Shown here in pieces: positions 1 to 28,998 of a stretch of 32,000 nt of DNA; position 1 is the first letter of the stretch; every line of letters begins with the position of its first letter. Both the position numbers and the translations under genes were made by a program. Under the pieces are notes generated by a model. It was not told where the DNA came from. It did not search any database and saw only the letters and a list, made by a program, of their open reading frames with translations. Origin of the DNA: Methanothermus fervidus DSM 2088 (GTDB lineage: Archaea; Methanobacteriota; Methanobacteria; DSM-2088; Methanothermaceae); the NCBI GenBank assembly GCA_000166095.1, contig CP002278.1:270001-302000 (forward strand), given 5' to 3'.

Positions 1-1887
1 GCCTTCTTCAAATGAATATTCGGGCTTCCATCCTAATTCATTTTTAATTTTGCTAGAATCTAATGCATATCTATAATCATGGGCTGGCCTATCTTTAACA
101 AACTTTATTAGTGATTGTGGTTTATTTAATTTTTTTAATATTAATTTTACTACCTCTATATTCCTCTTTTCATTGTTAGCACTCACGTTGTAAATTTCAC
201 CATTTTTACCTTTATGTAAAATTAGATCAATAGCTTTACATGTATCTTTAACATATAACCAATCTCTGATATTTGATCCATCACCATAGATAGGTAATGG
301 TTTATTTTCAAGGGCATTGGTAATCATTAACGGTATAAATTTTTCTGGGAACTGATAAGGACCATAATTGTTTGAAGGTCTAACAATGTTAACAGGTAAA
401 CCATAAGTTTTGTGATAAGATCTAACAAGTAAGTCAGCTCCTGCCTTACTAGCTGCATATGGACTGTTTGGTTTTAATGGCGAATCTTCTGTGAAATATC
501 CTTCATCGCCTAGAGTTCCATATACTTCATCTGTTGAAATTTGTATAAATTTTTCAATACCATATTTGCGGGCAGATTCTAGTAGTACTTGAGTACCTAA
601 TACATTTGTTTTAACAAATCTACCTGGTTCCATTATGCTTCTGTCAACGTGTGTGTTATGAACTACTATGTTTCCTACGCCAGCAACAAAATTATGAGAT
701 CCTTCAACTTCTAAGTCATATACAAATCCTTCATATTTTTTTTCCGTAATTTTTTTACTTTTAAATTTACAATTTCCTACTTTGATATTATATGCATTCA
801 TTTTATAGTCCACATAAAACTCTTTACCTATTAATAAAAGCAATAAACAAACTTCAGCTGCTAATCTTCTTGAGCTTGTCAAAAATTCTTCTTTTCCATT
901 GTTAATTCCTTTCACTAAACTTTTCCAAAATATTTCTTGATACTCTTTTCCAATGTTAAATACAAAATTAGGAATTTTTTTACTATCACCATCATTACAA
1001 AATTTTGTACAGATTTTATAAAAATCTTTATTTTTCAACTTAAGTTGTAGAGTACCATTGTTTTCTGTTATTAAGCTGTTTCCATCAAAAATATTTTTAA
1101 AATCGTCAGATAAAATTTCTAACCAGCTTTTGTCATTGTCATTGATAATGACATAATTTTGTTTGAGATAACCACTTGAAATATAAGCAGCAAGTAATCT
1201 ACATAGAAACTTTAATTTTTTATCATTAAACATTCCTAATATTTTTGGATGTTTTATCTTTTTATCTCTGCATGAGAAATTCATGTCTCTTACATATAAT
1301 AGAGAGGGATTGGATTTCGCTGCTACAACCTTTCCATGTGTATTGTATACAGAGTGATTTGGTGTTACAAGAACTTCTCCTTGTTTTTGTTTTAATTTTA
1401 GAATCTTTCCTCTATATGGATGTCGAATAATTTTCCGAAGAGGTAGGAAAGTCCCAGAATTATTATAAAAAGATAATACCTTTATTTTTTCATTTGATGT
1501 ATCAATGATTTCATGTTTTCCATCCCAAATTACTTTGTTGCTTTCTTTCAATCTTTCGAATAATTTTTTCATGCTAAGTACTTGTATTTCACCATTCCAA
1601 TGAACAGTCACAAATTCTTCTTCAGCAACACTTTCAGCTGCAAAATTTACAATATAATCACATTCATACTTTTCAATTAATTTTTGAATTAGCTTTCCAT
1701 CAGTTATGCAACCTTTAACAAAGCTATAATTAGGAGCATCTTCAACATCTTTAAGATTTTCTAAATTACCTGAATATGTTAATTTATCTAGATTTATTAT
1801 TTTATATTGTGGATATTTATTCACCATATAACGTACAAAATTACTTCCAATAAACCCAGCTCCTCCAGTAACTAATATAACACTCAT
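1..1887 (-). CDS. rfbB: dTDP-glucose 4,6-dehydratase (RmlB/RfbB) interrupted by an in-frame intein. The 3' end runs off the left edge of the window.
   Basis: Hand translation of the minus strand from ATG 1887..1885 (SD GGTGGTGAG upstream) is open for all 629 codons to position 1. The N-extein reads MSVILVTGGAGFIGSNF...NFAAE. The C-extein reads THVDRSI...STDEVYG...YAASKAG...DRPAHDYRYALD, which are SDR/RmlB hallmarks. The gene is missing from the supplied ORF track because it has no stop codon in the window. Confidence 0.9.
   Translation of the reverse strand, partial: MSVILVTGGAGFIGSNFVRYMVNKYPQYKIINLDKLTYSGNLENLKDVEDAPNYSFVKGCITDGKLIQKLIEKYECDYIVNFAAESVAEEEFVTVHWNGEIQVLSMKKLFERLKESNKVIWDGKHEIIDTSNEKIKVLSFYNNSGTFLPLRKIIRHPYRGKILKLKQKQGEVLVTPNHSVYNTHGKVVAAKSNPSLLYVRDMNFSCRDKKIKHPKILGMFNDKKLKFLCRLLAAYISSGYLKQNYVIINDNDKSWLEILSDDFKNIFDGNSLITENNGTLQLKLKNKDFYKICTKFCNDGDSKKIPNFVFNIGKEYQEIFWKSLVKGINNGKEEFLTSSRRLAAEVCLLLLLIGKEFYVDYKMNAYNIKVGNCKFKSKKITEKKYEGFVYDLEVEGSHNFVAGVGNIVVHNTHVDRSIMEPGRFVKTNVLGTQVLLESARKYGIEKFIQISTDEVYGTLGDEGYFTEDSPLKPNSPYAASKAGADLLVRSYHKTYGLPVNIVRPSNNYGPYQFPEKFIPLMITNALENKPLPIYGDGSNIRDWLYVKDTCKAIDLILHKGKNGEIYNVSANNEKRNIEVVKLILKKLNKPQSLIKFVKDRPAHDYRYALDSSKIKNELGWKPEYSFEEG
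655..1632 (-). mobile_element. Intein (326 aa, Ser1...His-Asn, Thr+1) with an internal LAGLIDADG-type homing endonuclease-like domain, inserted in rfbB
   Basis: Block A is SVAEEEFVTV. Block B is GEVLVTPNHSVY (TxxH). Blocks F/G are YEGFVYDLEVEGSHNFVAGVGNIVVHN, followed by T. LAGLIDADG-like motifs are LLAAYISSG (1171..1197) and SLVKGINNG (895..921). The element is exactly 978 nt and in frame. Flanking residues rejoin to AAE-THVDRS. Confidence 0.85.
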
Positions 1888-1997
1888 CTACTCACCACCA
1901 AAAAATCTTTAGATTTAGAATGTATAATTTTTTTGGAAGAAATTTTATAATTAAAAATATGTTATTAAAAATTTTTTAGATTTTTTGAGGTGAGATT
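1888..1997. promoter_or_regulatory. Divergent promoter region between rfbB (-) and rfbC (+)
   Basis: 110-nt AT-rich spacer with TATA-like TTTTATAA at 1944..1951 and TGTATAATTTTTT at 1921..1933. SD GAGGTGA at 1987..1993 serves rfbC. SD GGTGGTGAG (complement of 1891..1899) serves rfbB. Confidence 0.4.
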
Positions 1998-2567: not shown

Positions 2568-3317
2568 ATGAAAGTTGAAAAATATTTTGAAAAAATATTG
2601 TCAAAACGTAAAATCCATTTAACATTGATAGACCCTGAGGAACAAGAACCAAAGAAAGCACTTGAAATTGCAAAATTAGCGATAAAAGGAGGCACCGATG
2701 GAATAATGGTAGGAGGTTCTACTAGTGATCAGGAAGATCTAGATACAACAGTTAAAATATTAAAAATGAATCTAAATGTTCCTATCATACTTTTTCCAGG
2801 GAACATAACCGGTATAAGTAAATATGCTGATGCAATATTTTTCATGAGTTTATTAAATTCTACTAATCCTTATTGGATAACTGGTGCACAAGCTTTAGGT
2901 GCACCAACTGTAAAAAAATATGGTATTGAGGCATTACCAGTTGCATATTTGATTATAGAACCTGGTGGAACTGTAAGTTGGGTTGGAGATGCCAAACCAA
3001 TACCTAGAAAAAAATATAAACTTGCAGCTGCATATGCGATGGCTGCCGAATTATTAGGAATGAAATATGTTTATTTAGAGGCTGGATCTGGAGCCAAACA
3101 TCATGTACCTACTAAAATGATATCTAAAGTTAGAGATAGCACAAATTTGAAAATAATTGTTGGTGGAGGTATTAAAACTCGTGAAGATGTAGAAAGAGTT
3201 ATTAAAGCTGGTGCAGACATAATAGTAACTGGCACTATTATTGAACGTGCGTCTGATATCAAGAAGAAAATTTCTGAAATTGTTGAACCTTTAAAGTCAA
3301 CAAGTAACGTGGATTAG
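2568..3317 (+). CDS. Geranylgeranylglyceryl phosphate synthase (PcrB/GGGPS family)
   Basis: 249 aa TIM-barrel-like pattern: GGTDGIMVGGS, YLEAGSGA, IVGGGIKT, GADIIVTG. These are typical of archaeal GGGP synthase. Confidence 0.82.
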   Translation: MKVEKYFEKILSKRKIHLTLIDPEEQEPKKALEIAKLAIKGGTDGIMVGGSTSDQEDLDTTVKILKMNLNVPIILFPGNITGISKYADAIFFMSLLNSTNPYWITGAQALGAPTVKKYGIEALPVAYLIIEPGGTVSWVGDAKPIPRKKYKLAAAYAMAAELLGMKYVYLEAGSGAKHHVPTKMISKVRDSTNLKIIVGGGIKTREDVERVIKAGADIIVTGTIIERASDIKKKISEIVEPLKSTSNVD

Positions 3318-3659
3318 TGCATTCACTTTTTTACCTTCTTTTTTCAATTTATTAAATTTCTTTATTGCTTCAGGAGTAGGCAATGACACAAGTTTTATCC
3401 CATTTTCTTTAACTAAATTTTTTGCTTCATCGCTTACCTTTAATGCACCAACTTCGCCACATCCTACAACAAGTACATCAGGATTTTCATTAACTAGTTT
3501 TTCAATTTCTCTATCAGAAAGTATATGTGAAGTTCCATATTTCTCCCTTGAGAGAGACTTTTCTCTCTTACTAACACTCCCATCTATATGCACTATTATA
3601 TCGTGGTTATATTCTTTATTTCCATATTCTATACTTCCAAATCTATAACGTCCAAACAT
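3297..3659 (-). CDS. Mth938-like (DUF498) domain protein
   Basis: 120 aa with HDIIVHIDGSV, SHILSDREIE, VLVVGCGEVGALKV and a C-terminal ALIHVTC, matching my memory of the Mth938 family. Its 3' end overlaps the GGGPS 3' end by 21 nt (convergent). Confidence 0.65.
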   Translation of the reverse strand: MFGRYRFGSIEYGNKEYNHDIIVHIDGSVSKREKSLSREKYGTSHILSDREIEKLVNENPDVLVVGCGEVGALKVSDEAKNLVKENGIKLVSLPTPEAIKKFNKLKKEGKKVNALIHVTC

Positions 3660-3720
3660 ATTATCACAACTTTTTTTATTTCTAAATAAGAATTAACTTA
3701 ATTTTAGCATTAAAAATTTT

Positions 3721-4632
3721 TTACAGTAAGAACATTAAGAAAAATATCATGATAAATTTTGAAAATATACTTGCCATATAATCGATAATTCCTACCTTAA
3801 TACCAAATTTCCCAAACAACCCTATATACATAGGAAATGTATATTTTAGATATATAGATGTTATAACTGCCATGCTTCCCAAAAGAAGTGTTATAAGAGC
3901 TTGTTTTAAGGTTAAAGTGCCACTATAGAATAATGTGGCGACAGTTGTATATCCTGCAGAAAAATGGATGAGTTGTGCAATAATTACAATAGCTGACATT
4001 CCAGGTATGCCAAAAAATTTTAAAAATGGACTAAAAAGAATGTTTAAATATTTATATCCGCCTATTTCAAGTAAAAAATTTATAAGAAAAAATGTTACAA
4101 TTATGGTTGGTATAGTTTTTTTCAAAATCTTTATAGATCTCTTAATGGCGTTTCCTTTTGGTTTTTGGATTAATGGTATTTCTTCAATATTTATTGTTTT
4201 AGTATTCTGATATTTATGGATGTAAACAACTCCTGCAAGCAATTGTAAAAATGAGGAAAATAAATTTAAAAACAAATATATTATACCAAGCTTTAATCCT
4301 AAGATGGCTATGGTTATCAATGCCTGAGCTGTTAATAAATATTCTCCAAGTACTGTAGAAAAAGTGCTCATTACAATAGTTAAAATTACATCTATATCAT
4401 TTATTTCTTTATTTTTATAAAAATTTGCCAATGCGGATTTTCCAGCAGTTGAATTAAAAAAACATAAAACAAAAGAAAACACACAAGGATATGGAAGTCT
4501 TAAAAATTTTGTTAATGGAGTGATCAAAGAAATAATACTATTTCTTATTTTGTTATTTTCAAGAATGAAATTTGTGAATAAAACACTGATTATAACTAGT
4601 ATAAGCATCCTAAATAAAAGAGAAAAATTCAT
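3721..4632 (-). CDS. Polytopic integral membrane protein. It may belong to the nucleoside-recognition/Gate-domain family, but the function is uncertain.
   Basis: Highly hydrophobic protein of about 303 aa with multiple predicted TM stretches. The ORF track starts at GTG 4641, but AGGGTGA followed by 5 nt precedes ATG 4632, so I prefer 4632. Confidence 0.7.
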   Translation of the reverse strand: MNFSLLFRMLILVIISVLFTNFILENNKIRNSIISLITPLTKFLRLPYPCVFSFVLCFFNSTAGKSALANFYKNKEINDIDVILTIVMSTFSTVLGEYLLTAQALITIAILGLKLGIIYLFLNLFSSFLQLLAGVVYIHKYQNTKTINIEEIPLIQKPKGNAIKRSIKILKKTIPTIIVTFFLINFLLEIGGYKYLNILFSPFLKFFGIPGMSAIVIIAQLIHFSAGYTTVATLFYSGTLTLKQALITLLLGSMAVITSIYLKYTFPMYIGLFGKFGIKVGIIDYMASIFSKFIMIFFLMFLL

Positions 4633-4674
4633 ATTTTTCACCCTTTAGAAAATTTTTAAAGGAAGATGGTATTC

Positions 4675-5517
4675 ATGAAAGTTTTGGTTACAGGTTCAAC
4701 AGGAATGTTAGGTAAAGAATTAATAAATGTCCTTAAAGATGAATATGAAGTAAAAGGTGTAAGCAGTAAAGACTTTGACATAAGAAATTTAAATGAAACT
4801 ATTGAAGGTATTAAAGAATTTAATCCAGAAGTAGTTATACATACTGCAGCATTTACAGATGTTGATGGTAGTGAACATAAGAAAGACCTTGCATATAAAG
4901 TGAATTCAATAGGGACTAGAAATGTTGCTGTTGCATGTAATATAACTAATAGTTCTCTGCTGTATATTTCAACTGATTATGTCTTTGATGGTAAGAAAGG
5001 AAGTCCTTATTATGAATATGATAAACCAAACCCAATAAATGTCTATGGAAAAACAAAATACTTAGGAGAAGTATATGTAAGAGATTTGTTAAACAAATTT
5101 TATATTGTACGTACTTCTTGGTTATATGGACCTTATGGATCTAATTTTGTAGATACTATGTTACAACTTGCTGAAAATAAAGATGAAATAAAAGTGGTCG
5201 ATGATCAAGTTGGATCTCCTACCTACACCCTAGATTTATCATTAGCAATTAAAAAATTGATAAAAGAACCTAGATATGGAATATATCACCTAACCAACAG
5301 TGGACATTGTTCTTGGTATGAATTTGCTAAACAAATTTTCAAAGAAATGAATTTGGATGTCAAATTAACACCAATTAAAACTGAAGAGTCAAGGCGTCCA
5401 GCCAAACGTCCTAAATTTTCTGTTTTAAAAAATTATAATTGGGAAGTTGAGGGATTTAAAAAGTTAAGACATTACAAAGATGCCTTAAAAAATTACTTAA
5501 GGAGGATTAGAACATGA
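4675..5517 (+). CDS. rfbD: dTDP-4-dehydrorhamnose reductase
   Basis: [13 protein letters not shown] Rossmann N-terminus, [19 protein letters not shown] and QVGSPTYT, which are RmlD motifs. The ORF track start at 4666 is an alternative. The 3' end overlaps the rfbA start by 4 nt. Confidence 0.9.
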
Positions 5518-6407
5518 AGGGGATAGTACTCGCAGGTGGGGAAGGAACACGATTACGTCCAATAACAACGGCTGTATCAAAACAATTACTTCCAGTCTAT
5601 GATAAACCAATGGTTTATTATCCTATTTCTGTTTTGATGCTGGCAAATATAAGAGATATCCTCATTATATCCACTCCAAGAGATTTACCTCTCTATAAAG
5701 ATCTTTTAGGAGATGGAAGTGATTTTGGAGTTAGGTTTACATATAAAGAACAAAAGGAACCTAGAGGTTTAGCAGATGCATTTATAGTAGGAGAAGATTT
5801 TATTGGAAATGATAAGGTAGCATTGGTTTTAGGTGACAATATATTTTATGGTCATAGATTTAGTGAAGTACTGGAGAGAGCTACATCATTTAAAAAAGGT
5901 GCAGTAATTTTTGGATATTACGTAAAAGATCCCAGACCCTTTGGTGTTGTAGAATTTGACGAAGATGGAAATGTAATTTCCATAGAAGAAAAACCAAAGC
6001 ACCCAAAATCTAATTATGTGGTTCCAGGACTTTATTTCTATGATAATAAAGTGGTTGATATAGCTAAAAATATAGAACCTTCTGAGAGAGGTGAGCTTGA
6101 AATAACATCTGTAAATCAAGAGTATTTAAAAAGAGGTGAATTAAAAGTCGAAATTTTAGGTAGAGGAATGGCATGGATGGATGCAGGAACTCCTCAAGGA
6201 TTATTAGAAGCTAGTAATTTTGTTGAGGCAATACAAAGAAGGCAAGGTTTTTATATAGCATGCTTAGAAGAAATTGCATATAATAAAGGTTGGATAACAC
6301 GAGAACAACTTATAGAGAGAGCAAAAAAATTAAAGAATAGTGAATATGGTCAATATTTAATGGACATAGCAAAAATTGGTCCAACTGCTCCATATCTATC
6401 TAGGTAA
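5514..6407 (+). CDS. rfbA: Glucose-1-phosphate thymidylyltransferase
   Basis: [51 protein letters not shown] is a near-consensus RmlA N-terminus. SD GGAGGA lies upstream. Confidence 0.93.
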
Positions 6408-9128: not shown

Positions 9129-10190
9129 CTATCCTTCCAACTCCTCTAATTTTTCTGGTAGATATGTATCAACTACATATTCTAACCCATATTTAGAAAA
9201 AGACTGTTGTTCAGCTTTTTTCTTGATTTTTAACATCTTTTTAATTTCTCTTCTCCAAAATTCATCTTTATATCGTGGATCTCTTAATAATTCCTTTAGT
9301 CTAATTATATCAACTTCTTCTAGAGGATCTGTAGGTAAATCATAATTTATAATATCTGTTGCAGTTACACCTAAAAATTTAGCATTTGGAGTAGCTAACT
9401 CATGATTTACATGTGCTAACTTTGCACTACCGGAAATTATGACCATAGCTATGTGAAATCCCCATGGATCTCCATCATTGCATATGTAAACAGGCAATTT
9501 CAACTCTTCGTTTAATCTTTTTAAAAATCTTCTTGTTGCTCTTGCAGCTTGTCCTTTCAACCCAACTATTAAACAATCAAACTTTTTGTGAGCTTTTTCT
9601 TGGACCAATCGATGATACATACCCATAGTTTCTACTGCTATTACTCTTTCAACATCGTGGTCAACAAATTCTATTTCATCAACTGTCGGCGGTATTGTGT
9701 ATCCAGATTTACCAGCCTTCATAGCATCTATTTCTATATCACCTTCTCTAACTGTTAATTTACCATATACTGATGCCCCATCCTCTTCAGGTAATAAACC
9801 TAAATCTTCTCTTGTTACACCAAGTACTATTTCTAAATCCTCACTAATATTATTGGATTCTTGCTGATCATTAAAATCTACATCCCATCCTTCTGATACA
9901 TAATACATTTCCCTAAGCGTAGCTGTTTTACCTTTTTTAATTAATTCTTTACAGAAATTTGCAACATACAACATCTGACCAATTTTTCTTAACTGTTTAA
10001 CATTTCCCAATGACCTAACCCCATATTTGTCGCCAAGAACATAATGACGTTTATTATCATCATAAATAATATTAGAAGTGCTTCTTGAAGGTACTTTTAT
10101 TTTAGGTATTTTCTTGTTTTGAATATCTGTAATTATTCTTTTGCCAAGATTTTTGAGCTTCTTTAAAGTCTTTACTTTCCTATTTTTCAT
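9129..10190 (-). CDS. top6A: DNA topoisomerase VI subunit A (Spo11-like)
   Basis: Toprim motif [11 protein letters not shown], plus [16 protein letters not shown] followed by 5 nt precedes ATG 10190, so I prefer it over the ORF-track start at 10220. It overlaps the top6B end by 11 nt. Confidence 0.9.
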
Positions 10191-11745
10191 TAATTTCACC
10201 TGGAATGTTTCTTTTCTCAACTATTTTCTTTAAAAAATTGTTATAATTTGGAGTGCTAGTTTCAGCAAGCTTTGCAGCCTCTTTAATTATTATAGGTATG
10301 TATTTCTTGAATAATCTATATTTTTGTAATTCTTCTCTGGCAATTGCTTTAGACCTTAAATATCTACGAAGTTTTCTAGCAACGTCCATAACTGCCTGCC
10401 TAACCTCATGTAATATTTCAGGTTCTGGTGCTATACTTTGTTTACCTGTAGATAAATATGGAACATTTGTTGAAACTATGTTGACAAAAACTGAAATTGG
10501 TGAATTTTCAAAATCCCTAACACCGTATCTCTTCCAGTCGATGCTCTTAACAGCTTCAGTTATTGCACAACTTCCTTGATCAAAAGTTAAGGGAACTCTA
10601 TTTGCGAATCGTATTATTTCAGATTTTCTTTGATCTCCTACTTTTCTGCCCGCATTGCCACCATATGCTATGGCAGCTTCCGTTATAAATGGTATTCCTC
10701 CTTTGTATGTTGCAGGTTTTCTTGTTGTGGATGCAACAAACTCAGGATTTAACATTTTCTTCATGCTTTTCTCTATTTGTGATTCTCCAATAGGTATTAA
10801 ACCAGAAGTTGGTGGTGACATGAAATCCATTTTTTTGAAAGCATTGACAATTTCTTCGGCTTCATCCCATTTTAAATCTTTAGGTCTTTTATCTAAATCA
10901 ACATTTACAAGTTTTTCAAGTTCTTTAATTTTATTTTGAGACATCCTAGATAAAGAAGCCATTAAAAAGGTTTTAATTTTTCGTCTATTACTGTGTTTGG
11001 CCATATACAACAGATCATCGGCTGTTATTCCTTTAGGATGTGGTGGAATTTCTTTTGGTAGCGGTGGAATTTTCGTAGATGCTCGTTTAAATTTGTAAAT
11101 TTTTCCTCTAGGATCTTTAAATGTTATTTGAGCGTGAGGATTTCCTATCATGGTTCTTCTTATATACTCAAAAGCTCCCTGCTCTGACCTAGAATAAGTT
11201 ACATCTTTTAAATGTAACTCAACAAATACACCAGTACCATCAGGATCTACTTCATTTTTCTCAAGAATAACACCTTCATTTTTCTTTTCATCTAATTGTA
11301 AAAGCATTTCAACGCCTTTAATTTCTCCATCTTCTTTATATTTTGATATAACCCTCACTGGCTTCCCAGTTGTCATTTGTGAGAATAAAACACATCCACT
11401 ACATCCTAATCCTTGTTGGCCTCTTGATTGTATATTCCTAAATTTTGATCCAGCAAACATTTTGCAAAACACTTTTGGAACATAATCTTCTGGGATTCCT
11501 GGACCATTATCTTGATGACGTAATACATAATAATCTTTATCAATCCTTTCCAATTCTATTTCTATGTTTGGAAGTATACCTGCCTCTTCAGCAGCATCTA
11601 AACTATTAGTTATTAATTCATGAAATACCATTGTAAGAGACCTTATTTTTCCAGAAAAACCCAACATTTGTCTATTTTTACGGAAAAATTCTGATGGCGT
11701 GAGTTCTTTGAACTCTTTGAATAAATCGGAAGCTTGTTTTTCCAA
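10180..11745 (-). CDS. top6B: DNA topoisomerase VI subunit B (GHKL ATPase)
   Basis: Bergerat-fold boxes ELITNSLDA and DNGPGI, plus GQQGLG. 521 aa, lying directly upstream of top6A. Confidence 0.9.
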
Positions 11746-14880: not shown

Positions 14881-15641
14881 TTATATACGTTAGCTAAGAT
14901 TCTTTCAATTTCTTCTAAACTCTTGCAGACCACTTTATTTTTTAGCTTTTTTATTACAGGTCTTTTGACTATTATAACTTTGGTATCGAGTTCTAATGCA
15001 GCATCTACTTTATTTTTTAATCCACCTTCTTTACCACTGTCTTTTGTGATAATGGCTTCTGCTTCATATTCTTCTATTAATGCCATATTTAATTTTTTTG
15101 AGAATACTCCATACATTGCAATAATGTTTTTTGGAGGAATTCCCAATTTTAGACATTTTTTGATAGAATCTGGCCATGGCAATACTCTAACTACAAGTTT
15201 ATTATTATCTAAATATTTAACAATTTTAGGCAATGTAGACACGCCAGCTAAATGCATTACTTTCCCATCAATTTTCGCTGCAATTTCACCCGCCTCATCA
15301 AATGAATCTACATATATTACATTAGGATGTTTATAATTAATAGAAGGCCTTTCAAAACGTATGTATCTAATTCCTGTTTTTTCACATGCATCTATTGCAT
15401 TTTTAGTCGCTTCTTTAGCAAAGGGATGAGTAGCATCAATTAAAACTTTAACATCTTTTTTATTAATTAATTCAACTAAATCGTCTTTGTCTAGCGGCCT
15501 ACTTATTACTTCATCTGCACCAGAATTTTTTGCTAGATTGGCACCATAATTTGTAGTCGTCGTTGCAACAATTTTAAATTTATTTTTTAGCCTTTTTATT
15601 ATTTTATTGCCATTAACGGTTCCACTCATTACTAATATCAT
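14877..15641 (-). CDS. cbiJ: Cobalt-precorrin-6A reductase (CbiJ/CobK)
   Basis: 254 aa with N-terminal ILVMSGTVNG, HPFA and ITKDSGKEGGLKNKVDAALELDTKVIIVKRP, which match the CbiJ family pattern. Confidence 0.78.
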   Translation of the reverse strand: MILVMSGTVNGNKIIKRLKNKFKIVATTTTNYGANLAKNSGADEVISRPLDKDDLVELINKKDVKVLIDATHPFAKEATKNAIDACEKTGIRYIRFERPSINYKHPNVIYVDSFDEAGEIAAKIDGKVMHLAGVSTLPKIVKYLDNNKLVVRVLPWPDSIKKCLKLGIPPKNIIAMYGVFSKKLNMALIEEYEAEAIITKDSGKEGGLKNKVDAALELDTKVIIVKRPVIKKLKNKVVCKSLEEIERILANVYN

Positions 15642-18120
15642 ATTTTTTCCTTCTCAAAAGTTTGTTGATTAAGATAGTTGAAGAAACTAAAACGATAAAC
15701 AACCAATCAAATGGAAGTAGTGAGGTTGTTCCAAATATTTTTTGCATAAACGAATTATAAACAATGATTATTTGTAATAAAATTGATGCTAACAATGCTA
15801 TCAACAAAAATTTATTACCAGGCTCATTTGATTTGCAATTAAACACATTGAATAATTGAAAGAAAACAAAAGTTGTGAATGCAACGGTAACAGCCTTAGA
15901 AGGAAATTTGTTTAAATAAAAGTAATAAATTAGGAGAGTTCCAATAGCCATAATAACTCCACTATACAATATTTCAGTTAAATACTTAGATGATAGAATA
16001 TCTCTTTTGACAGGTTTTTTTGCCATTATATCTTTTTCAGGAGGTTCAAGTCCCAATGCTTGAGCTAATGGTCCATCCATTATTATGTTAATCCATAATA
16101 TCTGTATAGGTGTGAACGGAGTAGGTAAATCAGCAATAGAGGATGATAAAATTGATAATATAGCTCCAATGTTAGTTGATAATTGAAATTTTACAAATCT
16201 TCTTATATTGGCGAATATTGTCCTGCCTTCCTTTATAGCAAAAACTATTGTTGCGAAATTATCGTCTTGAAGAACCATGTCCGCGGTATCTTTAGCAACG
16301 TCTGTCCCACTCCCCATTGCAACTCCTATTGAGGCTTTCTTGAGTGCTGGAGCATCGTTGACACCATCTCCAGTCATTGCAACTATATAACCCTTCTTTT
16401 GTAAAGCTTTGACAATTCTTAATTTTTGTCTTGGAAGAGTTCTTGCATAAACTTTAATATCCTCTACTATTGATTCAAATTCTTTGTCACTCATTCTATC
16501 TAATTCTTCCCCTGTTAAAATTTTATCCTTATCATTTAGTATTCCCAGTTCTTTGGCTATGGCAAAGGCTGTATCTTTATGATCTCCAGTTATCATTACA
16601 ATATCTATACCTGCTTTTTTACATAATTTTATAGCTTCAAATACTTCTTTTCTTGGGGGATCCATCATTCCAACAAATCCTAAAAATATTAAATCTTCCT
16701 CAAATCCATTTAATTCAGTAGTTTTTTTATAAGCTAAAGCCATAACCCTTAATGCTTTATTTGCCATTTTTTTAATTACATATTTAAATTCCTTTATGTC
16801 TTCTTCTTCCAATTTTTGAACTTTACCATTTGATTCAAAATATTTGCATTTTTTTAATACAACTTCTGGAGCCCCTTTTGTAAAAACATAATAATTTGAA
16901 CCTTTTTTATGTATGGTACTCATCATTTTTCTTGAGCTATCAAAAGGTATTTCCTTAATTCTAGGATATTTCTTTTCTAAATCTTCTTTTTTGTATCCTT
17001 TTTCTTTTGCAAAATGTAGTAGAGCTATCTCCGTAGGATCGCCAATTGCTTTTTCATTAATTGTTGCATTGTTACAAAGAGTGCAAACCTTAAACGCATT
17101 TTCAGAAAGTAAATAACTTTCTCTTACACGCATTTCATTTTTTGTCAAAGTTCCAGTTTTATCTGTACATATTACATTACAAGAACCTAATGTTTCAACT
17201 GCGAGTAATTTCCTTATTATAGCATTATTCTTCGCCATTTTTTGCATTCCTAAAGCTAAAGTAAGTGTTAAAACTGCAGGTAAACCTTCAGGTACAGCAG
17301 CTACAGCAAGTGCCACAGCAGTTAAAAATGTTTTAAATATTGGCAATCCTTTTAGGGTTTGTAATATAAAAACAAGGACACAAACCGAAAGTGCAAAAGC
17401 ACTTAATGTTTTGCTTAATTTTGCTATTCTTTTTTGTAATGGTGTTTTTTCTTCTTTTTCCTGAATTACTTCAGCTATTTTACCTACTTCAGTGTTCATA
17501 CCAGTTGCTATTACCACACCTTTTCCCCAACCAGATACAACCTTTGATTGCATGTACACGATTAAATCTTTAGTATTTTTTGCATTTTTAGGATTATCAG
17601 CTTTTTTTACAGGCACAGATTCTCCAGTAATGCTTGATTCATCTATAGTCAAATTTGATGCATCTAATATACATAAATCTGCAGGAACTGTATCACCTTC
17701 TCTGATTATTACAATATCTCCAGGAACTAATTCTGAAGATGGTATGTATCTTTTTTTGCCATTTCTTATTACTACCGCCTCAGGAGAAATTAATTTTTTT
17801 AGTTTTTCCATCGCTGCTTCTGCTTTATACTCCTGTATAAATCCAACTACAGCATTTATAAAAACAACTGCCAGTATTACCGTTGCATCTAAAATATCAC
17901 CAACAAACCATGATATTATACTAGCTACAAGCAATATAACCATAGGATATTCCATAAATTGAGATATGAATTGTCTGAATGGGCTTACTTTTCTTTCAAT
18001 CAATTCATTTTTTCCAAATTTTTTTAATCTTTTTTTAGCTTCCTGTTCTGATAGCCCTGTTTCCTTTGATTTAAATTTTTTTAAAATCTCTTGAGTATTC
18101 ATAGAAGCTAGCTTTTCCAT
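15613..18120 (-). CDS. P-type cation-transporting ATPase, P2 (SERCA/PMCA-like, probably Ca2+) type
   Basis: TGES, PEGLPAV (TM4), the phosphorylation site ICTDKTGTLT, MITGDH and TGDGVNDAPALKKA. SD GAGGT lies upstream of ATG 18120. Confidence 0.9.
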   Translation of the reverse strand: MEKLASMNTQEILKKFKSKETGLSEQEAKKRLKKFGKNELIERKVSPFRQFISQFMEYPMVILLVASIISWFVGDILDATVILAVVFINAVVGFIQEYKAEAAMEKLKKLISPEAVVIRNGKKRYIPSSELVPGDIVIIREGDTVPADLCILDASNLTIDESSITGESVPVKKADNPKNAKNTKDLIVYMQSKVVSGWGKGVVIATGMNTEVGKIAEVIQEKEEKTPLQKRIAKLSKTLSAFALSVCVLVFILQTLKGLPIFKTFLTAVALAVAAVPEGLPAVLTLTLALGMQKMAKNNAIIRKLLAVETLGSCNVICTDKTGTLTKNEMRVRESYLLSENAFKVCTLCNNATINEKAIGDPTEIALLHFAKEKGYKKEDLEKKYPRIKEIPFDSSRKMMSTIHKKGSNYYVFTKGAPEVVLKKCKYFESNGKVQKLEEEDIKEFKYVIKKMANKALRVMALAYKKTTELNGFEEDLIFLGFVGMMDPPRKEVFEAIKLCKKAGIDIVMITGDHKDTAFAIAKELGILNDKDKILTGEELDRMSDKEFESIVEDIKVYARTLPRQKLRIVKALQKKGYIVAMTGDGVNDAPALKKASIGVAMGSGTDVAKDTADMVLQDDNFATIVFAIKEGRTIFANIRRFVKFQLSTNIGAILSILSSSIADLPTPFTPIQILWINIIMDGPLAQALGLEPPEKDIMAKKPVKRDILSSKYLTEILYSGVIMAIGTLLIYYFYLNKFPSKAVTVAFTTFVFFQLFNVFNCKSNEPGNKFLLIALLASILLQIIIVYNSFMQKIFGTTSLLPFDWLFIVLVSSTILINKLLRRKKYDISNEWNR

Positions 18121-18925: not shown

Positions 18926-19999
18926 ATGATGGAAGCAAAACTAGTATTGGAAGATGGTACAGTTATACATGGAAAAGGTTTTGGTAGTGAAACAACAAAA
19001 TTTGGAGAATTAATATTTTGTACATCCATGACAGGCTACGTGGAATCACTTACAGATCCATCATATAAAGGACATATATTAATGATGACTTATCCATTAA
19101 TAGGAAATTACGGTGTAAATCCTGAATGGTATCAATCTGATGGTATAAAGGCAGAAGGTTTAGTCATTAGAGAACTATGTCAACAACCTTCTCATTATGC
19201 ATGTGAAAGTAATTTATCAAAATTTTTGGAAGATTATGGAATTCCAGGAATATGTGAAGTCGATACGAGAGCATTGACAATTAAAATAAGAAAAATTGGA
19301 AGCTTAAAAGGAGCTATAAGTACAGAAGATATTTCAGACAAAGAATTATTAAGTATGGTACGTGAATATCCTGATATTACTGAAATAGATCTTGTTGATG
19401 AAGTATCAACTAAAAAACCTAAATTTTTTGGTGAAGGAAATAGAACTTTAGTAATTTTAGATTGTGGTGTCAAAAGAAACATAATAAGATCTTTTGTTGA
19501 AAGAAAAACACAAGTAATTTTGCTTCCTTATCATGCCGCGCCGACCGAAATATTAGAATATGATCCAGACGCTGTTTTAGTCTCAAACGGTCCTGGAGAT
19601 CCTAGAAGAGTAAAGAATGTCATTTACACAATTAAAAAATTGTCAAACAAATTACCTATTTTTGGAATATGCTTAGGTCATCAACTAATTTCTTTAGCTT
19701 TTGGAGCTAAAATATTTAAAATGAAATTTGGACACAGAGGATCAAATCATCCTGTAAAAGACATTGAAAGTGGAGAGGTATATATAACTTCACAAAATCA
19801 TGGTTTTGCTGTGGATATTTCATCTTCAGATCTCCCAATAGAAATAACACAAATTAATCTTAATGATGGTACTATAGAAGGCATTAAACATAAAGAATTA
19901 CCGATATTGAGTGTCCAATATCATCCAGAGGCTGGTCCTGGACCATATGATACTAGGTGGTTATTTGACAAATTTATTAAGATTATGGATGAATATTGA
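18926..19999 (+). CDS. carA: Carbamoyl-phosphate synthase small (glutaminase) subunit
   Basis: FGICLGHQL nucleophile elbow, [16 protein letters not shown] and QYHPEA. Confidence 0.93.
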
Positions 20000-20008
20000 G
20001 GTGTTATA

Positions 20009-23000
20009 ATGCCAAAATACAAAGATATTGATAGTGTACTAGTCATAGGCTCGGGTCCTATACAAATAGGGCAGGCAGCAGAATTTGATTATTCAGGATC
20101 ACAAGCTTGTAAATCTTTACGTGAAGAGGGTGTAAAAACAATCCTTGTTAATTCAAATCCGGCTACAATACAGACAGATTTGGAAATAGCTGACAAAATA
20201 TATTTAGAACCTTTGACACCAAAAATTGTTGCTAAAATAATAGAAAGAGAAAATCCTGATGCCTTACTTCCAACAATGGGCGGACAAACAGCGTTAAATG
20301 TTGCCACAAAGCTATCAGAAATGGGGGCACTTAAAGATATAAAAGTTATAGGGTCATCAATTGAAACAATACAAAGAGTTGAAGATCGTGAAATGTTCGC
20401 TAATTTTATGAAAAAAATTGGTGAACCTGTACCTAAATATAGGGCTGTAAATTCTGTTGAAGAAGCATTTGAAGCCGTTGAAGAAATAGGATTCCCAGTT
20501 ATAGTACGTCCTGCATACACCCTTGGAGGAACTGGCGGTGGAGTAGCTAAAAATAAAAAAGAGCTTGAAGAAGTAGTTTCTCATGGACTTAAGATGAGTC
20601 TCGTAAATCAAGTTTTAATAGATCAATCCGTCATTGGATGGAAAGAGTTTGAATATGAAGTGATGAGAGATAGAAAGGGCACATGTATCACTGTATGTAA
20701 TATGGAGAATGTAGATCCTATGGGTATTCATACAGGTGAAAGTATAGTAGTTGCTCCAGCCCAGACTCTAAGCGATGAAGATAATCAAAAACTACGTAGT
20801 GCTGCATTAAAAATAATAGATGCATTAGGTATAGAAGGTGGATGTAATATTCAATTTGCATTAAATCCTGAAACTGGAGATTATTTAGTAATAGAGGTGA
20901 ACCCAAGAGTTAGTAGAAGTAGTGCTTTAGCTTCTAAAGCCACTGGATATCCAATAGCAAAAATAGCTGCAAAAATTGCTATTGGACTTACATTAGATGA
21001 AATTCAAAATGATATTACAAAAGAAACTCCTGCTTCTTTTGAACCTACTTTGGATTATGTTGTAACAAAAATACCAAGGTGGCCGTTTGACAAATTTAGA
21101 GAAATAGACAGAAGAATAGGAGTTCAAATGAAATCTACAGGAGAAGTAATGGCAATTGGACGCACAATTGAAGAATCTTTCCATAAAGCAATAAGATCTC
21201 TAGATATAGGAAAAGAAGGATTTTATGATACAAATGTAACTGAAGAAGATTTGAAATATCCAACCGATAAAAGATTATTTAAGATATATTCTGCATTAAA
21301 AAAAGGTTGGAGTATTGAAAAAATTCACAAACTTACAAAAATTGACAAATTTTTCTTGTATAAAATTTTGAACATAGTTAAGTTTGAAAAAAAATTAACT
21401 AAAAAATCTATTAAAGATCCCAAGATTCTTCGCAAAGCAAAGAGGATGGGATTTTCTGATAAAAAATTAGCTGAGATATGTAATGTAAGTGAAAGATACA
21501 TTAGGAAATTAAGAAGAAAATATGGCATAAGACCTGCATATAAAATTGTTGATACATGTGCCGCAGAATTTGAAGCTAAAACTCCATATTATTACAGTAC
21601 TTATGATGATGTTGATGAAGTAGAGGTAAGTGATAAAAATAAGGTGTTAATAATTGGATCAGGACCTATAAGAATAGGACAAGGAATAGAATTTGATTAT
21701 TGTTGTGTACATGCAGCTTTAGCACTTAAAAATGAAGGATTTGAAACTATAATGGTTAATAATAATCCAGAGACTGTTAGTACTGATTATGATGTGTCTG
21801 ACAAACTTTATTTTGAACCACTTACTGCAGAGGATGTTTTAGAAATAATTGAGAAGGAAAAACCTGATGGTGTTATTGTACAATTTGGTGGTCAAAGTTC
21901 CATAAATTTAGCTGAAGATTTGGAAAAAGAAGGGGTTAAAATATTAGGTACACCTTATGAAAGTATAGATAAAGTAGAAGATCGTGAGCGATTTACTAAA
22001 GTTTTAAAGAAGTTAGGTATACCACATCCGCCTTATGGAATTGCCAGATCATTTAAAGAAGCAAAGAAAATTGCAAAGAAAATAGGGTACCCTGTTTTAG
22101 TAAGACCTTCCTATGTTCTTGGTGGAAGGGCAATGGAAATTGTATATAATGATAAAGAACTTAAAGAATATATAGAAGAAGCTGTTAAGGTTTCTCCAAG
22201 ACATCCAATATTAATAGATAAATTTCTTGAGGATGCTATTGAGGTAGATGTTGATGCTTTATCTGATGGTGAGGATGTCTTTATAGCTGGAATAATGGAG
22301 CATATAGAAGAAGCTGGAGTCCACTCAGGAGATTCTGCTTGTGTAATACCTCCTCAAACTTTAAGTAAAGAAACTATTGAAACTATAGAAGAATATACTA
22401 GAAAACTAGCATTAGAGTTAAAAGTAGTTGGATTGATAAACATACAATATGCTGTTAAAAATGAAAATGGAAAACCTAAAGTATATGTGTTAGAAGCTAA
22501 TCCACGTGCAAGTCGTACAGTTCCATTTGTTAGTAAAGCAATTGGTATCTCTTTAGCTAAAATTGCGGCAATGCTAATGGTTGGTAAAAAATTATCTGAT
22601 TTTAACTTAAAAAATAGAAAACTTAAACATGTGGCTGTGAAAGAATCTGTTTTTCCATTTGTTAAATTGCCAGGGGCTGACGTAAGATTAGGTCCAGAAA
22701 TGAAATCCACAGGGGAAACTATGGGAATTGATAAAAATTTTGGATTGGCATATTATAAATCACAACTTGGGGCTGATATGAAAATCCCAACAAGCGGTAA
22801 TATATTAATTAGTGTTAAGGATTCTGATAAAGGAAAAATAAAAGATATTGTTAAAAAGGCTGAAAAACTAGGATTTAACATTATTGCAACAAAAGGAACT
22901 GCTGAAGCCATCAAAGATGTTGTAAAGAATGTTAAAGTTATAAATAAAGTAAGTGAAAAATCACCAAATATCAAAGATGCTTTATTAAATGGAGAGATCG

Positions 23001-23209
23001 ATTTAGTTATTAATACACCTCATGGTAAACGATCTATGGATGATGGATATATAATGCGTAGAATGGCTGTAGATTTGGGAATTCCATATATAACTACACT
23101 TGCTGGAGCCAGAGCAGCTTTAAATGCAATTGAAGCTGTTAAACAAGGTAAGATAAATGTTAAATCATTAAATGAATATCATAAAGAGCCGGACCCTGCA
23201 GTTACTTAA
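20009..23209 (+). CDS. carB: Carbamoyl-phosphate synthase large subunit (unsplit, 1066 aa)
   Basis: Duplicated ATP-grasp halves ([21 protein letters not shown] and [21 protein letters not shown]), [16 protein letters not shown] / [16 protein letters not shown], and a C-terminal MGS-like domain. Confidence 0.95.
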
Positions 23210-27540: not shown

Positions 27541-28998
27541 TTAACCTAAGAATTTTCTAAGATTTGCAGCCTCAAGTATACTTTCTTTTATGCTATCTGT
27601 TCCATCTGTTGCTAAGAGATGATATATTTTTCTACTAATGTTTACATGTTTTCTATCTTCTTCAACTTCTGGGAAATGTTCTCTAACAGATTTTTTTAAA
27701 GAATCTGTTATAAGTGGAGATTCCCAGTCAAGATATTTTAATGCATCATAAAAATCTTTTTCAAAATTAACATATATATCGCTCAGAAAATCTATATCTT
27801 TCTCTGATAATGCATCAAAACCAAGAATTTCTGGTGGTACTCCAATAGAATACAACACACAGGTAAAGGTTATTGCTCTTGGTAATACAATATTTCCCAT
27901 TTTTCTAGAGTATCCAAAAAGACCTATATGCAGTTTTCTTTTTCTTCTACTAGGTACAAATCTAGATAACCTATTGATTATAGATGCAACATTTGTAATT
28001 TGTTTTTGATATTGTTCAGTATATTTATTTATGATATCTAGGGATTTTTCAATGTCAACAATGTCAGCATTTTTTTTCTTTTTTGATTTGAGTTTTTTAA
28101 TGGCCTTTGAAACATCGCTAGGTGGATTGTCATATTTAAATGAAGATTGAATTGTGAAAGTATGAACACTTGGGTATTCCGCTATAATTTGATCAACTGT
28201 TTTAGGTTTTAAATTTCCCCGGAAAGGAGCAGATCCAATTCCTATAATGGGATATATATCTATGGATATTTTTTCAGCTAGTTCATCTAACTTCATTAAT
28301 GCTATTTTATTCAATAACAAGGCAGAAATCATTCCATAATTCATGGCTGGGTCTGAACGTGCAAGAAAAACTCTTTGATATTCAAAATTTTTATCTCTAA
28401 GATAATTTTCTGTAATCTTATCAGAGTTTAACATTGATTTGTAATCCTCAAATAAAGGTATTACGTTTATTTCTTTAGGTTTAAAACTCCCAATCCATTC
28501 TTTTACAGTTATATCTTTCTTCCTAATTAACATCTTTTCTTTTCCAGCTACAAACTTCTTATAATAATAATATATCCTATTTAAATCATTGGCTGAAGTT
28601 GTCATTGGTAAAATTACTTCAAAAATAGGGGCAATATCTTCACCATAGAATACCTTTGCTGTATCGTAGGATCGAGGTATACTTTCCAATGTTTCAATTA
28701 AAATTTTAGATTCGGCTCTTTCTATTGCGGGATTTGGTACTCTTAATGTCAAAAATACATCTTTTCCTAATTTATTTTCTCTAAAGAATAATTCATATTT
28801 TGTTAAAAGTTTTTTTACTACATAGTTATCTACTTCTTTTCCTTCACAATCCCACATCTGTTCATCGCAACCCAAATGTGAAAAAACATAGTAAGTTTCT
28901 GTAACTTCATCTTCACCTTTTATTTCACTGTTAGGTGAAAAGAAAGGAGGGTTAACATTGTCAGGGTGTTGAGTACTCATACATCTTGGTATATACAT
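27541..28998 (-). CDS. ppcA: Archaeal-type phosphoenolpyruvate carboxylase (PepcA)
   Basis: The N-terminal IPRCMSTQHPDN signature and the roughly 485-aa size are typical of the short archaeal PEPC. SD AGGGTGA is embedded in the end of the upstream ORF. Confidence 0.85.
   Translation of the reverse strand: MYIPRCMSTQHPDNVNPPFFSPNSEIKGEDEVTETYYVFSHLGCDEQMWDCEGKEVDNYVVKKLLTKYELFFRENKLGKDVFLTLRVPNPAIERAESKILIETLESIPRSYDTAKVFYGEDIAPIFEVILPMTTSANDLNRIYYYYKKFVAGKEKMLIRKKDITVKEWIGSFKPKEINVIPLFEDYKSMLNSDKITENYLRDKNFEYQRVFLARSDPAMNYGMISALLLNKIALMKLDELAEKISIDIYPIIGIGSAPFRGNLKPKTVDQIIAEYPSVHTFTIQSSFKYDNPPSDVSKAIKKLKSKKKKNADIVDIEKSLDIINKYTEQYQKQITNVASIINRLSRFVPSRRKRKLHIGLFGYSRKMGNIVLPRAITFTCVLYSIGVPPEILGFDALSEKDIDFLSDIYVNFEKDFYDALKYLDWESPLITDSLKKSVREHFPEVEEDRKHVNISRKIYHLLATDGTDSIKESILEAANLRKFLG

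Follow-up and report, generated by a model that had tools for sequence, protein, structure and literature searches.

In a stretch of 32,000 nucleotides from the archaeon Methanothermus fervidus DSM 2088 (GenBank CP002278.1, positions 270,001 to 302,000; hereafter the window), the gene rmlB of dTDP-glucose 4,6-dehydratase (RmlB) lies on the minus strand and is interrupted in frame by a canonical class-1 intein. The intein comprises 326 amino acids (codons 86-411, window positions 655-1632), and its HINT splicing domain is split by a domain of LAGLIDADG fold. Every testable defining feature of such an element was found in it, and splicing itself is predicted from these features. We consider the best overall explanation, at a probability of about 0.88, to be canonical class-1 splicing of the intein from an RmlB precursor, with a decayed endonuclease and a probably horizontal origin.

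The host gene was identified from its translation. As the initial annotation had claimed, the minus-strand frame from ATG 1887 runs for 629 codons without a stop, up to the window's left edge (translation of window 1-1887). The complete product has 667 residues, of which the window covers the first 629, and shows 100% identity to ADP77083.1 of M. fervidus DSM 2088 (WP_013413361.1, UniRef E3GXQ1). This protein bears the annotation 'NAD-dependent epimerase/dehydratase' or 'dTDP-glucose 4,6-dehydratase', and its GenBank deposit already carries a precomputed Pfam intein match. A Shine-Dalgarno-like GGTGGTGA (1892-1899, minus strand), read from the sequence four nucleotides 5' of the ATG, supports this start codon. 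That the gene is absent from the program-made track of open reading frames (ORFs), also pointed out initially, is due to the frame leaving the window edge, since such ORFs go unlisted.

Residues 1-85 and 412-629 are collinear with RmlB and reach 455.9 bits against TIGR01181, the dTDP-glucose 4,6-dehydratase equivalog (cutoff 365.1), despite the interruption and the missing C-terminus; the RmlB motifs GGAGFIGS, STDEVYG and YAASKAG are all there. The N-extein (codons 1-85, window 1633-1887, minus strand) contains GGAGFIGS as the NAD-binding glycine motif, ends in IVNFAAE and aligns to residues 27-111 of PDB 6bi4. The C-extein (codons 412-629, window 1-654, minus strand, with the last 38 codons beyond the window) begins with Thr+1 (652-654) in THVDRS and contributes the catalytic motifs STDEVYG and YAASKAG. 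Eight contigs from assemblies of independent runs contain the same 667-residue frame, and two variants of the product each differ by one residue. In the Logan assembly of ERR9765778 and in a second contig (55,973 bp), a 2-bp AT deletion in ACAAAATTTTGT (window 1002-1003, codons 295-296, inside the intein) turns the frame into ORFs of 296 and 343 residues (locus L074, 1501-3502), while it is intact in all other assemblies. This deletion could be a homopolymer error, or else a true loss-of-function variant that resembles a split intein by accident.

The inserted segment (residues 86-411) scores above the cutoffs of three intein hidden Markov models (HMMs), namely Pfam Intein_splicing PF14890 (48.2 bits, cutoff 35.8), TIGR01443 (30.4, cutoff 15.6) and TIGR01445 (28.2, cutoff 24.5). 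The conserved splicing blocks all lie on the minus strand, and the motifs quoted initially are all found where they had been placed; conservation was read from an alignment of 47 homologues. Block A, SVAEEEFVTV (1603-1632), opens with Ser1, the first nucleophile (codon 86, 1630-1632), and both nucleophiles, Ser1 and Thr+1, occur in 46 of 46 RmlB intein alleles. Block B, VTPNHSVY (1345-1368), supplies Thr90 and His93, and T90, P91, N92 and H93 are invariant in the 47 sequences. Block F, VYDLEVEGSHNFVAG (VYDLEV..HNF; 679-723), supplies Asp306 and His313; V304, Y305 and D306 are invariant and H313 nearly so. Block G, GNIVVHN (655-675), ends in the penultimate His325 and the terminal Asn326, both invariant.

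The junctions are equally well defined. When residue 85 is joined to residue 412, a 341-residue RmlB results whose alignment with the solved structures 6bi4 (448 bits), 2hun and 1g1a has no gap at the junction. The joined sequence reads ivnfaaeThvdrsi in the spliced query and ivnfaaeShvdrsi in 6bi4, and 74 close intein-free homologues read AAE[ST]HVDRS. The boundaries AAE/S...HN/THVDRS (slashes mark the junctions) are thus exactly those proposed from the sequence, and excision would restore the conserved motif AAETHVDRS. A split intein and a bacterial intein-like (BIL) domain were considered as well and are ruled out by the one contiguous frame, by Thr+1 and by the insertion within an invariant motif.

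The predicted structure agrees with this assignment. An AlphaFold2 (AF2) model of the intein, built on the 47-homologue alignment, has a predicted local distance difference test score (pLDDT) of 93.1 and a predicted template modelling score (pTM) of 0.92. Its best Foldseek matches in the PDB are PhoVMA (7qst), PI-PkoII (2cw7), TliVMA (7qss/7qsu) and PI-PfuI (1dq3), with template modelling scores relative to the query (TMq) of 0.65-0.75, and the Foldseek probability is 1.00 against intein crystal structures, among them the mini-inteins 5o9i and 4e2t with their HINT fold. The central domain matches the LAGLIDADG enzymes I-DmoI, which is free-standing, and I-Tsp061I (score relative to the target, TMt, 0.52-0.64; root-mean-square deviation 3.1-4.2 Å). 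PI-PkoII, intein-2 of the Thermococcus kodakarensis DNA polymerase, is also the nearest solved sequence (phmmer E = 7e-13), with an alignment that takes in the N-splicing, the endonuclease and the C-splicing segment. Like the M. fervidus intein, PI-PkoII and PhoVMA/TliVMA (7qst, 7qss) combine HINT and LAGLIDADG domains (Foldseek E about 1e-19, TMq 0.70-0.75), but they reside at other sites in DNA polymerase and V-ATPase, and the structural alignments show only 15-17% identity.

The insertion point was located in an AF2 model of P0047, an intein-free homologue: it falls between E90 and S91, three residues past the strand 83-87 and in the loop before helix 100-120. In Rossmann-fold enzymes that belong to the extended type of short-chain dehydrogenases/reductases (SDRs), this β4-α4 loop (hhHxAA, then S/T) borders the cleft in which NAD binds. 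Because the insert interrupts the NAD-binding fold in this very loop, the unspliced RmlB precursor should lack activity.

We propose that rmlB is translated as a 77-kDa precursor (77.1 kDa by computation), in which Ser1 would attack the carbonyl of Glu85 in an N-to-O acyl shift assisted by Thr90 and His93 of block B. The N-extein would then pass to the hydroxyl group of Thr+1 by transesterification, and cyclisation of Asn326, helped by His325 and by Asp306 and His313 of block F, would free the 37.7-kDa intein. A final O-to-N shift would create a normal Glu-Thr peptide bond and yield RmlB with the sequence AAETHVDRS, for which we compute 39.4 kDa instead of the approximately 35 kDa expected initially. 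RmlB activity, and hence the adjoining rmlABCD pathway of dTDP-rhamnose synthesis, would depend on splicing, and the element would be a fixed, host-adapted remnant at a late stage of the homing cycle.

Inteins at the same site occur in many other RmlB proteins. A full-length search returned 45 further clusters (90% identity) of intein-bearing RmlB proteins of 645-737 residues, and the insertion site AAE/S...HN/THVDRS is identical in all of them; among the named sources are Thermococcus prieurii and Thermococcus henrietii as well as a WOR-1 bacterium, Gemmataceae, Omnitrophica and Anaerolineales. A pattern-based scan of 185,579 species, with one genome each, gave at least 70 loci, at least 26 of which have RmlB exteins split at 85/86; these counts are lower bounds, and M. 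fervidus itself was not returned. The 26 RmlB loci come from a Nitrososphaeria metagenome-assembled genome (MAG; the closest, at 45% identity), Thermococcus, Saccharibacteria and other members of the candidate phyla radiation (CPR), Omnitrophota, Chloroflexi, Rokubacteria, Armatimonadota and Planctomycetia. Most RmlBs carry no intein, and the distribution is sporadic. A word-index search of 5.8 billion proteins with the intein only gave one weak match and missed the M. fervidus protein itself, which reflects a limit of the index and not rarity. The site is rare but widespread, and it is already present in databases. Hence, of the initial suggestion that it may be rare or new, the first part stands (at least 26 of 185,579 species), in line with the frequent-host tables of Novikova et al. 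2016 (PMC4760082), in which UDP-glucose dehydrogenase is listed and RmlB is not, whereas novelty to the databases does not, given the 45 other clusters.

The genome scan also produced matches at 20-25% identity (L026-L064, for example L028 from Thermus tenuipuniceus, L034 from Herpetosiphon llansteffanensis and L050 from Oscillochloris trichoides). Six of these ORFs were read and none is RmlB. Five encode a PrkA-like AAA protein with an intein (four of these ORFs are complete, at about 1070-1100 residues, and one is truncated by its contig), with junctions of the type ...GH/SV[AS]G...[IV]VCHN/TNE[PA]EY, and the sixth contains a Ski2/Hel308-type helicase intein from a Bathyarchaeia MAG (L066).

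Comparison of RmlB homologues revealed a marked bias at the +1 residue, which is Thr in 46 of 46 intein-bearing alleles, whereas the 74 closest intein-free RmlBs have Ser in 72 cases and Thr in two (Fisher's test, p = 3e-31, phylogeny ignored). This points to intein-extein co-adaptation or to a homing footprint, and a past, precise loss of the intein could account for the two intein-free AAETHVDRS alleles. Co-adaptation would also suit an intein turned into a post-translational switch, which would splice only when the temperature is high or certain conditions prevail and would thereby gate the supply of dTDP-rhamnose for the cell envelope. A RadA intein from a hyperthermophile is a documented case of conditional splicing (PMC4513877; PMC4760082 also takes up the topic), and an intein within a cofactor-binding fold should leave the precursor inactive. 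Yet retention after endonuclease loss is equally well explained by the difficulty of deleting an intein precisely from a selected gene, and a switch sits poorly with a sporadic distribution in which most RmlBs are intein-free. We thus regard this explanation as unlikely.

Alternatively, the intein could have decayed to a non-splicing state, so that RmlB would be a pseudogene product or would permanently carry the 326-residue insertion, with rhamnose synthesis lost or performed by another enzyme. The endonuclease part is clearly degenerating, and the intein frameshift in one sequencing run hints at dispensability in culture. The splicing residues, however, are all intact and invariant, and for 326 codons to remain open by chance in this genome of 31% GC has a probability of only 1.3e-12 (calculated from the window base composition). 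Moreover, GxxGxxG, STDE and YxxxK are preserved in the exteins, whose score against the RmlB equivalog is 456 bits, and an unspliced insert in the β4-α4 loop of a cofactor-binding fold would hardly be tolerable. Loss of splicing is therefore very improbable, and canonical splicing from the precursor remains the preferred reading.

The endonuclease domain presents a different picture from the splicing domain. The two-motif αββαββα LAGLIDADG fold is kept (AF2/Foldseek), but both motifs are degenerate. Motif 1, LLAAYISSGY (1168-1197, minus strand), has Ser153 in place of the catalytic Glu, which is found in 41 of 46 alleles (LLAAYISEGN type); motif 2, FWKSLVKGINN (898-930, minus strand), has Ile243 in place of the catalytic Asp, followed by a seven-residue deletion, where 40 of 46 alleles have G-D-G. 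The corresponding motifs of the nearest relatives read LLAAYISEGN and FWETLLEGDG, and the 537-residue PI-PkoII, unlike the M. fervidus intein, likewise has Glu and Asp at both aligned positions (LLGYYVSEGY, GDGD). Both acidic residues are kept in 39 of the 46 RmlB intein alleles and both are gone in M. fervidus, where, in addition, a short segment is missing after each motif. Pfam LAGLIDADG_3 (PF14528) has no match in the window protein even at E <= 1, while most sister alleles have a precomputed match. Thus, of three testable properties of an active homing endonuclease, the fold is present, and the acidic residues and the profile match are missing.

Continued mobility of the intein, with an endonuclease that cleaves empty rmlB alleles and so promotes homing, is hard to reconcile with the replacement of both metal-binding acidic residues, the two deleted segments next to the motifs and the undetected Pfam domain, or with a base composition that is fully host-like. 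In its favour, the LAGLIDADG fold is retained at high model confidence, and since the catalytic residues look intact in 39 of the 46 sister alleles, the family taken together is probably mobile; for the M. fervidus copy we nevertheless give active homing little more than an outside chance. A foreign base composition had been considered separately and was rejected: GC content is 27.4% in the intein, 30.3% in the exteins and 30.9% in the window, and neither this nor GC content at third codon positions, also host-like, distinguishes the intein. With its fold kept and its catalytic centre lost, the endonuclease looks inactive in DNA cutting, and the loss of both catalytic acidic residues and of two short segments means that the element is most likely no longer mobile. 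We consider the M. fervidus intein to be probably long-resident, immobile and fixed, and retained only because splicing is still required. Finally, an assembly or sequencing artefact, for which one could cite the 2-bp difference within an A4T4 run in one sequencing run, is effectively refuted by the identical 667-residue product in the finished genome and eight contigs from independent runs, and by the same architecture in 45 homologous clusters of unrelated organisms.

As to the origin of the M. fervidus copy, its nearest relatives found are the alleles of T. prieurii and T. henrietii (WP_460129120.1, WP_099209626.1; P0007) and the metagenomic P0003-P0006 and P0010. They share with it the site AAE/S...HN/THVDRS, Ser1 and Thr+1 and the block sequences, and are 47-50% identical over the whole intein, whereas all other alleles reach at most 40%; in a neighbour-joining (NJ) tree, the M. 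fervidus intein clusters with the Thermococcus alleles. They differ from it in length (363-364 versus 326 residues), and all but P0006 keep both catalytic residues (ISEGN, GDG), with the endonuclease detected by Pfam. The exteins behave differently, since those of M. fervidus are 50-56% identical to the Thermococcus-type hosts, 63-65% to WOR-1-type hosts, whose intein is only 36% identical to that of M. fervidus, and 70% to intein-free Clostridia-type RmlB. They are also nearer to Firmicutes/Clostridia RmlB (448 bits to 6bi4) than to 2hun (384 bits); we take 6bi4 to be the RmlB of Bacillus anthracis and 2hun that of Pyrococcus horikoshii. This suggests that the rmlB host gene itself is of bacterial type. 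The simplest reading of the incongruence between intein and extein identities is horizontal invasion; the intein was probably gained when a resident bacterial-like rmlB was invaded from a Thermococcales-like donor, which is plausible among hyperthermophiles of a common habitat. A co-conversion tract around the junction was also sought, but over the 60 residues there extein identity to the Thermococcus types, otherwise about 52%, climbs only to 55-60%, too weak a rise to be accepted as one.

Several points weigh against our overall interpretation. All-oxygen splicing chemistry with Ser1 and Thr+1 is often slow away from the native temperature. The loss of endonuclease activity is judged from just two residue positions, and horizontal transfer is argued from pairwise identities and one NJ tree without bootstrap. 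Furthermore, a genuine frame break in ERR9765778 would mean that the culture concerned can do without RmlB.

Related inteins are not confined to RmlB. When 1.84 billion representatives were searched with HMMER without an index, 473 matches were obtained at E <= 1e-3, and among the best 150 of these, 27 are extended-SDR proteins with an intein at profile position 82/83. According to NCBIfam, several of these SDR hosts are not RmlB but GDP-mannose 4,6-dehydratase (P0138, P0143, P0145, P0150), RmlD (P0137), GalE-like (P0135) or LegB-like (P0152). Their inteins resemble that of M. fervidus in HMM position 82/83, in Ser1 and in Ser/Thr+1, and with 33-37% identity to it (E 1e-30 to 1e-41) they are as close as many RmlB alleles. 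The hosts differ in the reactions that they catalyse and in their flanks (AAMS/../SHV, CAAF/../TDVD), and none is from M. fervidus; the RmlD junction, for example, reads INCAAF/S...HN/TDVDGC. In an NJ tree of 117 related inteins, calculated without bootstrap, the 33 SDR-site sequences fall into one clade of 38, in which those from the paralogues interleave with the RmlB alleles, and the other five members are inteins from DNA ligase or HerA-like hosts. This suggests that the intein moved between paralogues with a common short motif, AAx/[ST]xV.

Other matches of the same search (P0133, P0148, P0166, P0168, P0170; E 1e-47 to 1e-21) have an ATP-dependent DNA ligase, a HerA-type helicase, a phage terminase large subunit and family-2 glycosyltransferases as hosts, and the ligase-hosted P0133 is the best single match, above every SDR-hosted representative. 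A Saccharibacteria MAG (CAYTBY010000001.1, locus L023, 3001-4023) encodes a GDP-mannose 4,6-dehydratase-like ORF of 1089 residues with two inteins, the first at the SDR site equivalent to that of M. fervidus RmlB (YNLGAQ/SVTGE...VVHN/SHVKVSF) and the second downstream (NHEC/ITAQT...TWIHN/SPRRGE).

Tentatively, these inteins may form a coherent and so-far undescribed lineage, characterised by Ser1, Ser/Thr+1 and LAGLIDADG, that targets the β4-α4 NAD-binding loop of extended-SDR nucleotide-sugar enzymes. Such a lineage would have moved from paralogue to paralogue (RmlB, GDP-mannose dehydratase, RmlD, GalE-like) and across domain boundaries (Thermococcales, Methanothermus and Nitrososphaeria; CPR, Chloroflexi, Rokubacteria and Planctomycetes), would enforce Thr+1 in RmlB and might, in some hosts, gate envelope-sugar synthesis conditionally. 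We offer this as a possibility that is less likely than not to hold in full. InBase reportedly lists inteins ('Ter Ndse') in a predicted nucleoside-diphosphate-sugar epimerase of Trichodesmium erythraeum, which would be a further nucleotide-sugar host of SDR type; a literature search found nothing on them, and they serve as a lead only. We found no paper on an intein in RmlB/rfbB, Gmd, M. fervidus RmlB or another nucleotide-sugar enzyme of the SDR group; an earlier listing may exist in InBase or in the supplementary tables of Novikova et al., which lie outside this comparison. The archaeal UDP-glucose/GDP-mannose dehydrogenase intein (COG1004; Table 2 of PMC4760082) likewise resides in a euryarchaeal NAD-dependent nucleotide-sugar enzyme, but enzyme family and site are unrelated.

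The genomic neighbourhood of rmlB contains the rest of its pathway, all on the plus strand. Divergent from rmlB lies rmlC (1998-2555), which encodes a dTDP-4-dehydrorhamnose 3,5-epimerase of 185 residues (PF00908) and has the same position in L071-L073. It is followed by rmlD (4666-5517), whose homologous SDR site IHTAAF/TDVDGS is empty, and by rmlA (5514-6407), which encodes a glucose-1-phosphate thymidylyltransferase of 297 residues (NTP_transferase). Together with rmlB, the full dTDP-L-rhamnose pathway is thus contained within 6.4 kb. Three unrelated genes, for a PcrB-type protein (probably geranylgeranylglyceryl phosphate synthase), a DUF498 protein and a Gate-domain membrane protein, lie between rmlC and rmlD (2568-4641). 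The remainder of the window (6500-32000) carries housekeeping genes, among them topoisomerase VI A/B (9129-11745), a P-type ATPase (15613-18120), the small and large subunits of carbamoyl-phosphate synthase (18926-23209), archaeal phosphoenolpyruvate carboxylase (27541-28998), MoeA and glutamyl-tRNA reductase. We found no tRNA and no Rfam family in the window, and no further intein in its ten largest ORFs.

In summary, the M. fervidus RmlB intein is mechanistically and structurally a standard class-1 archaeal intein of LAGLIDADG type, unsurprising to the specialist, and the case leaves the current understanding of inteins unchanged. Most discussion of inteins treats them as parasites of proteins that act in replication, recombination and repair; the host here is a nucleotide-sugar enzyme, with the insertion in the loop right after β4 of its NAD-binding Rossmann domain. 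The inteins of RmlB, Gmd, RmlD and GalE-like proteins would let one study intein movement between paralogues that have only a short motif in common, and the intact and decayed endonucleases at one site would allow the homing cycle to be followed. The thermostable all-oxygen (Ser1/Thr+1) splicing domain may also serve protein engineering. For annotation, the intein explains why rmlB is twice the usual length and easily missed or misnamed. For the biology of M. fervidus, it is predicted that dTDP-rhamnose synthesis depends on protein splicing.

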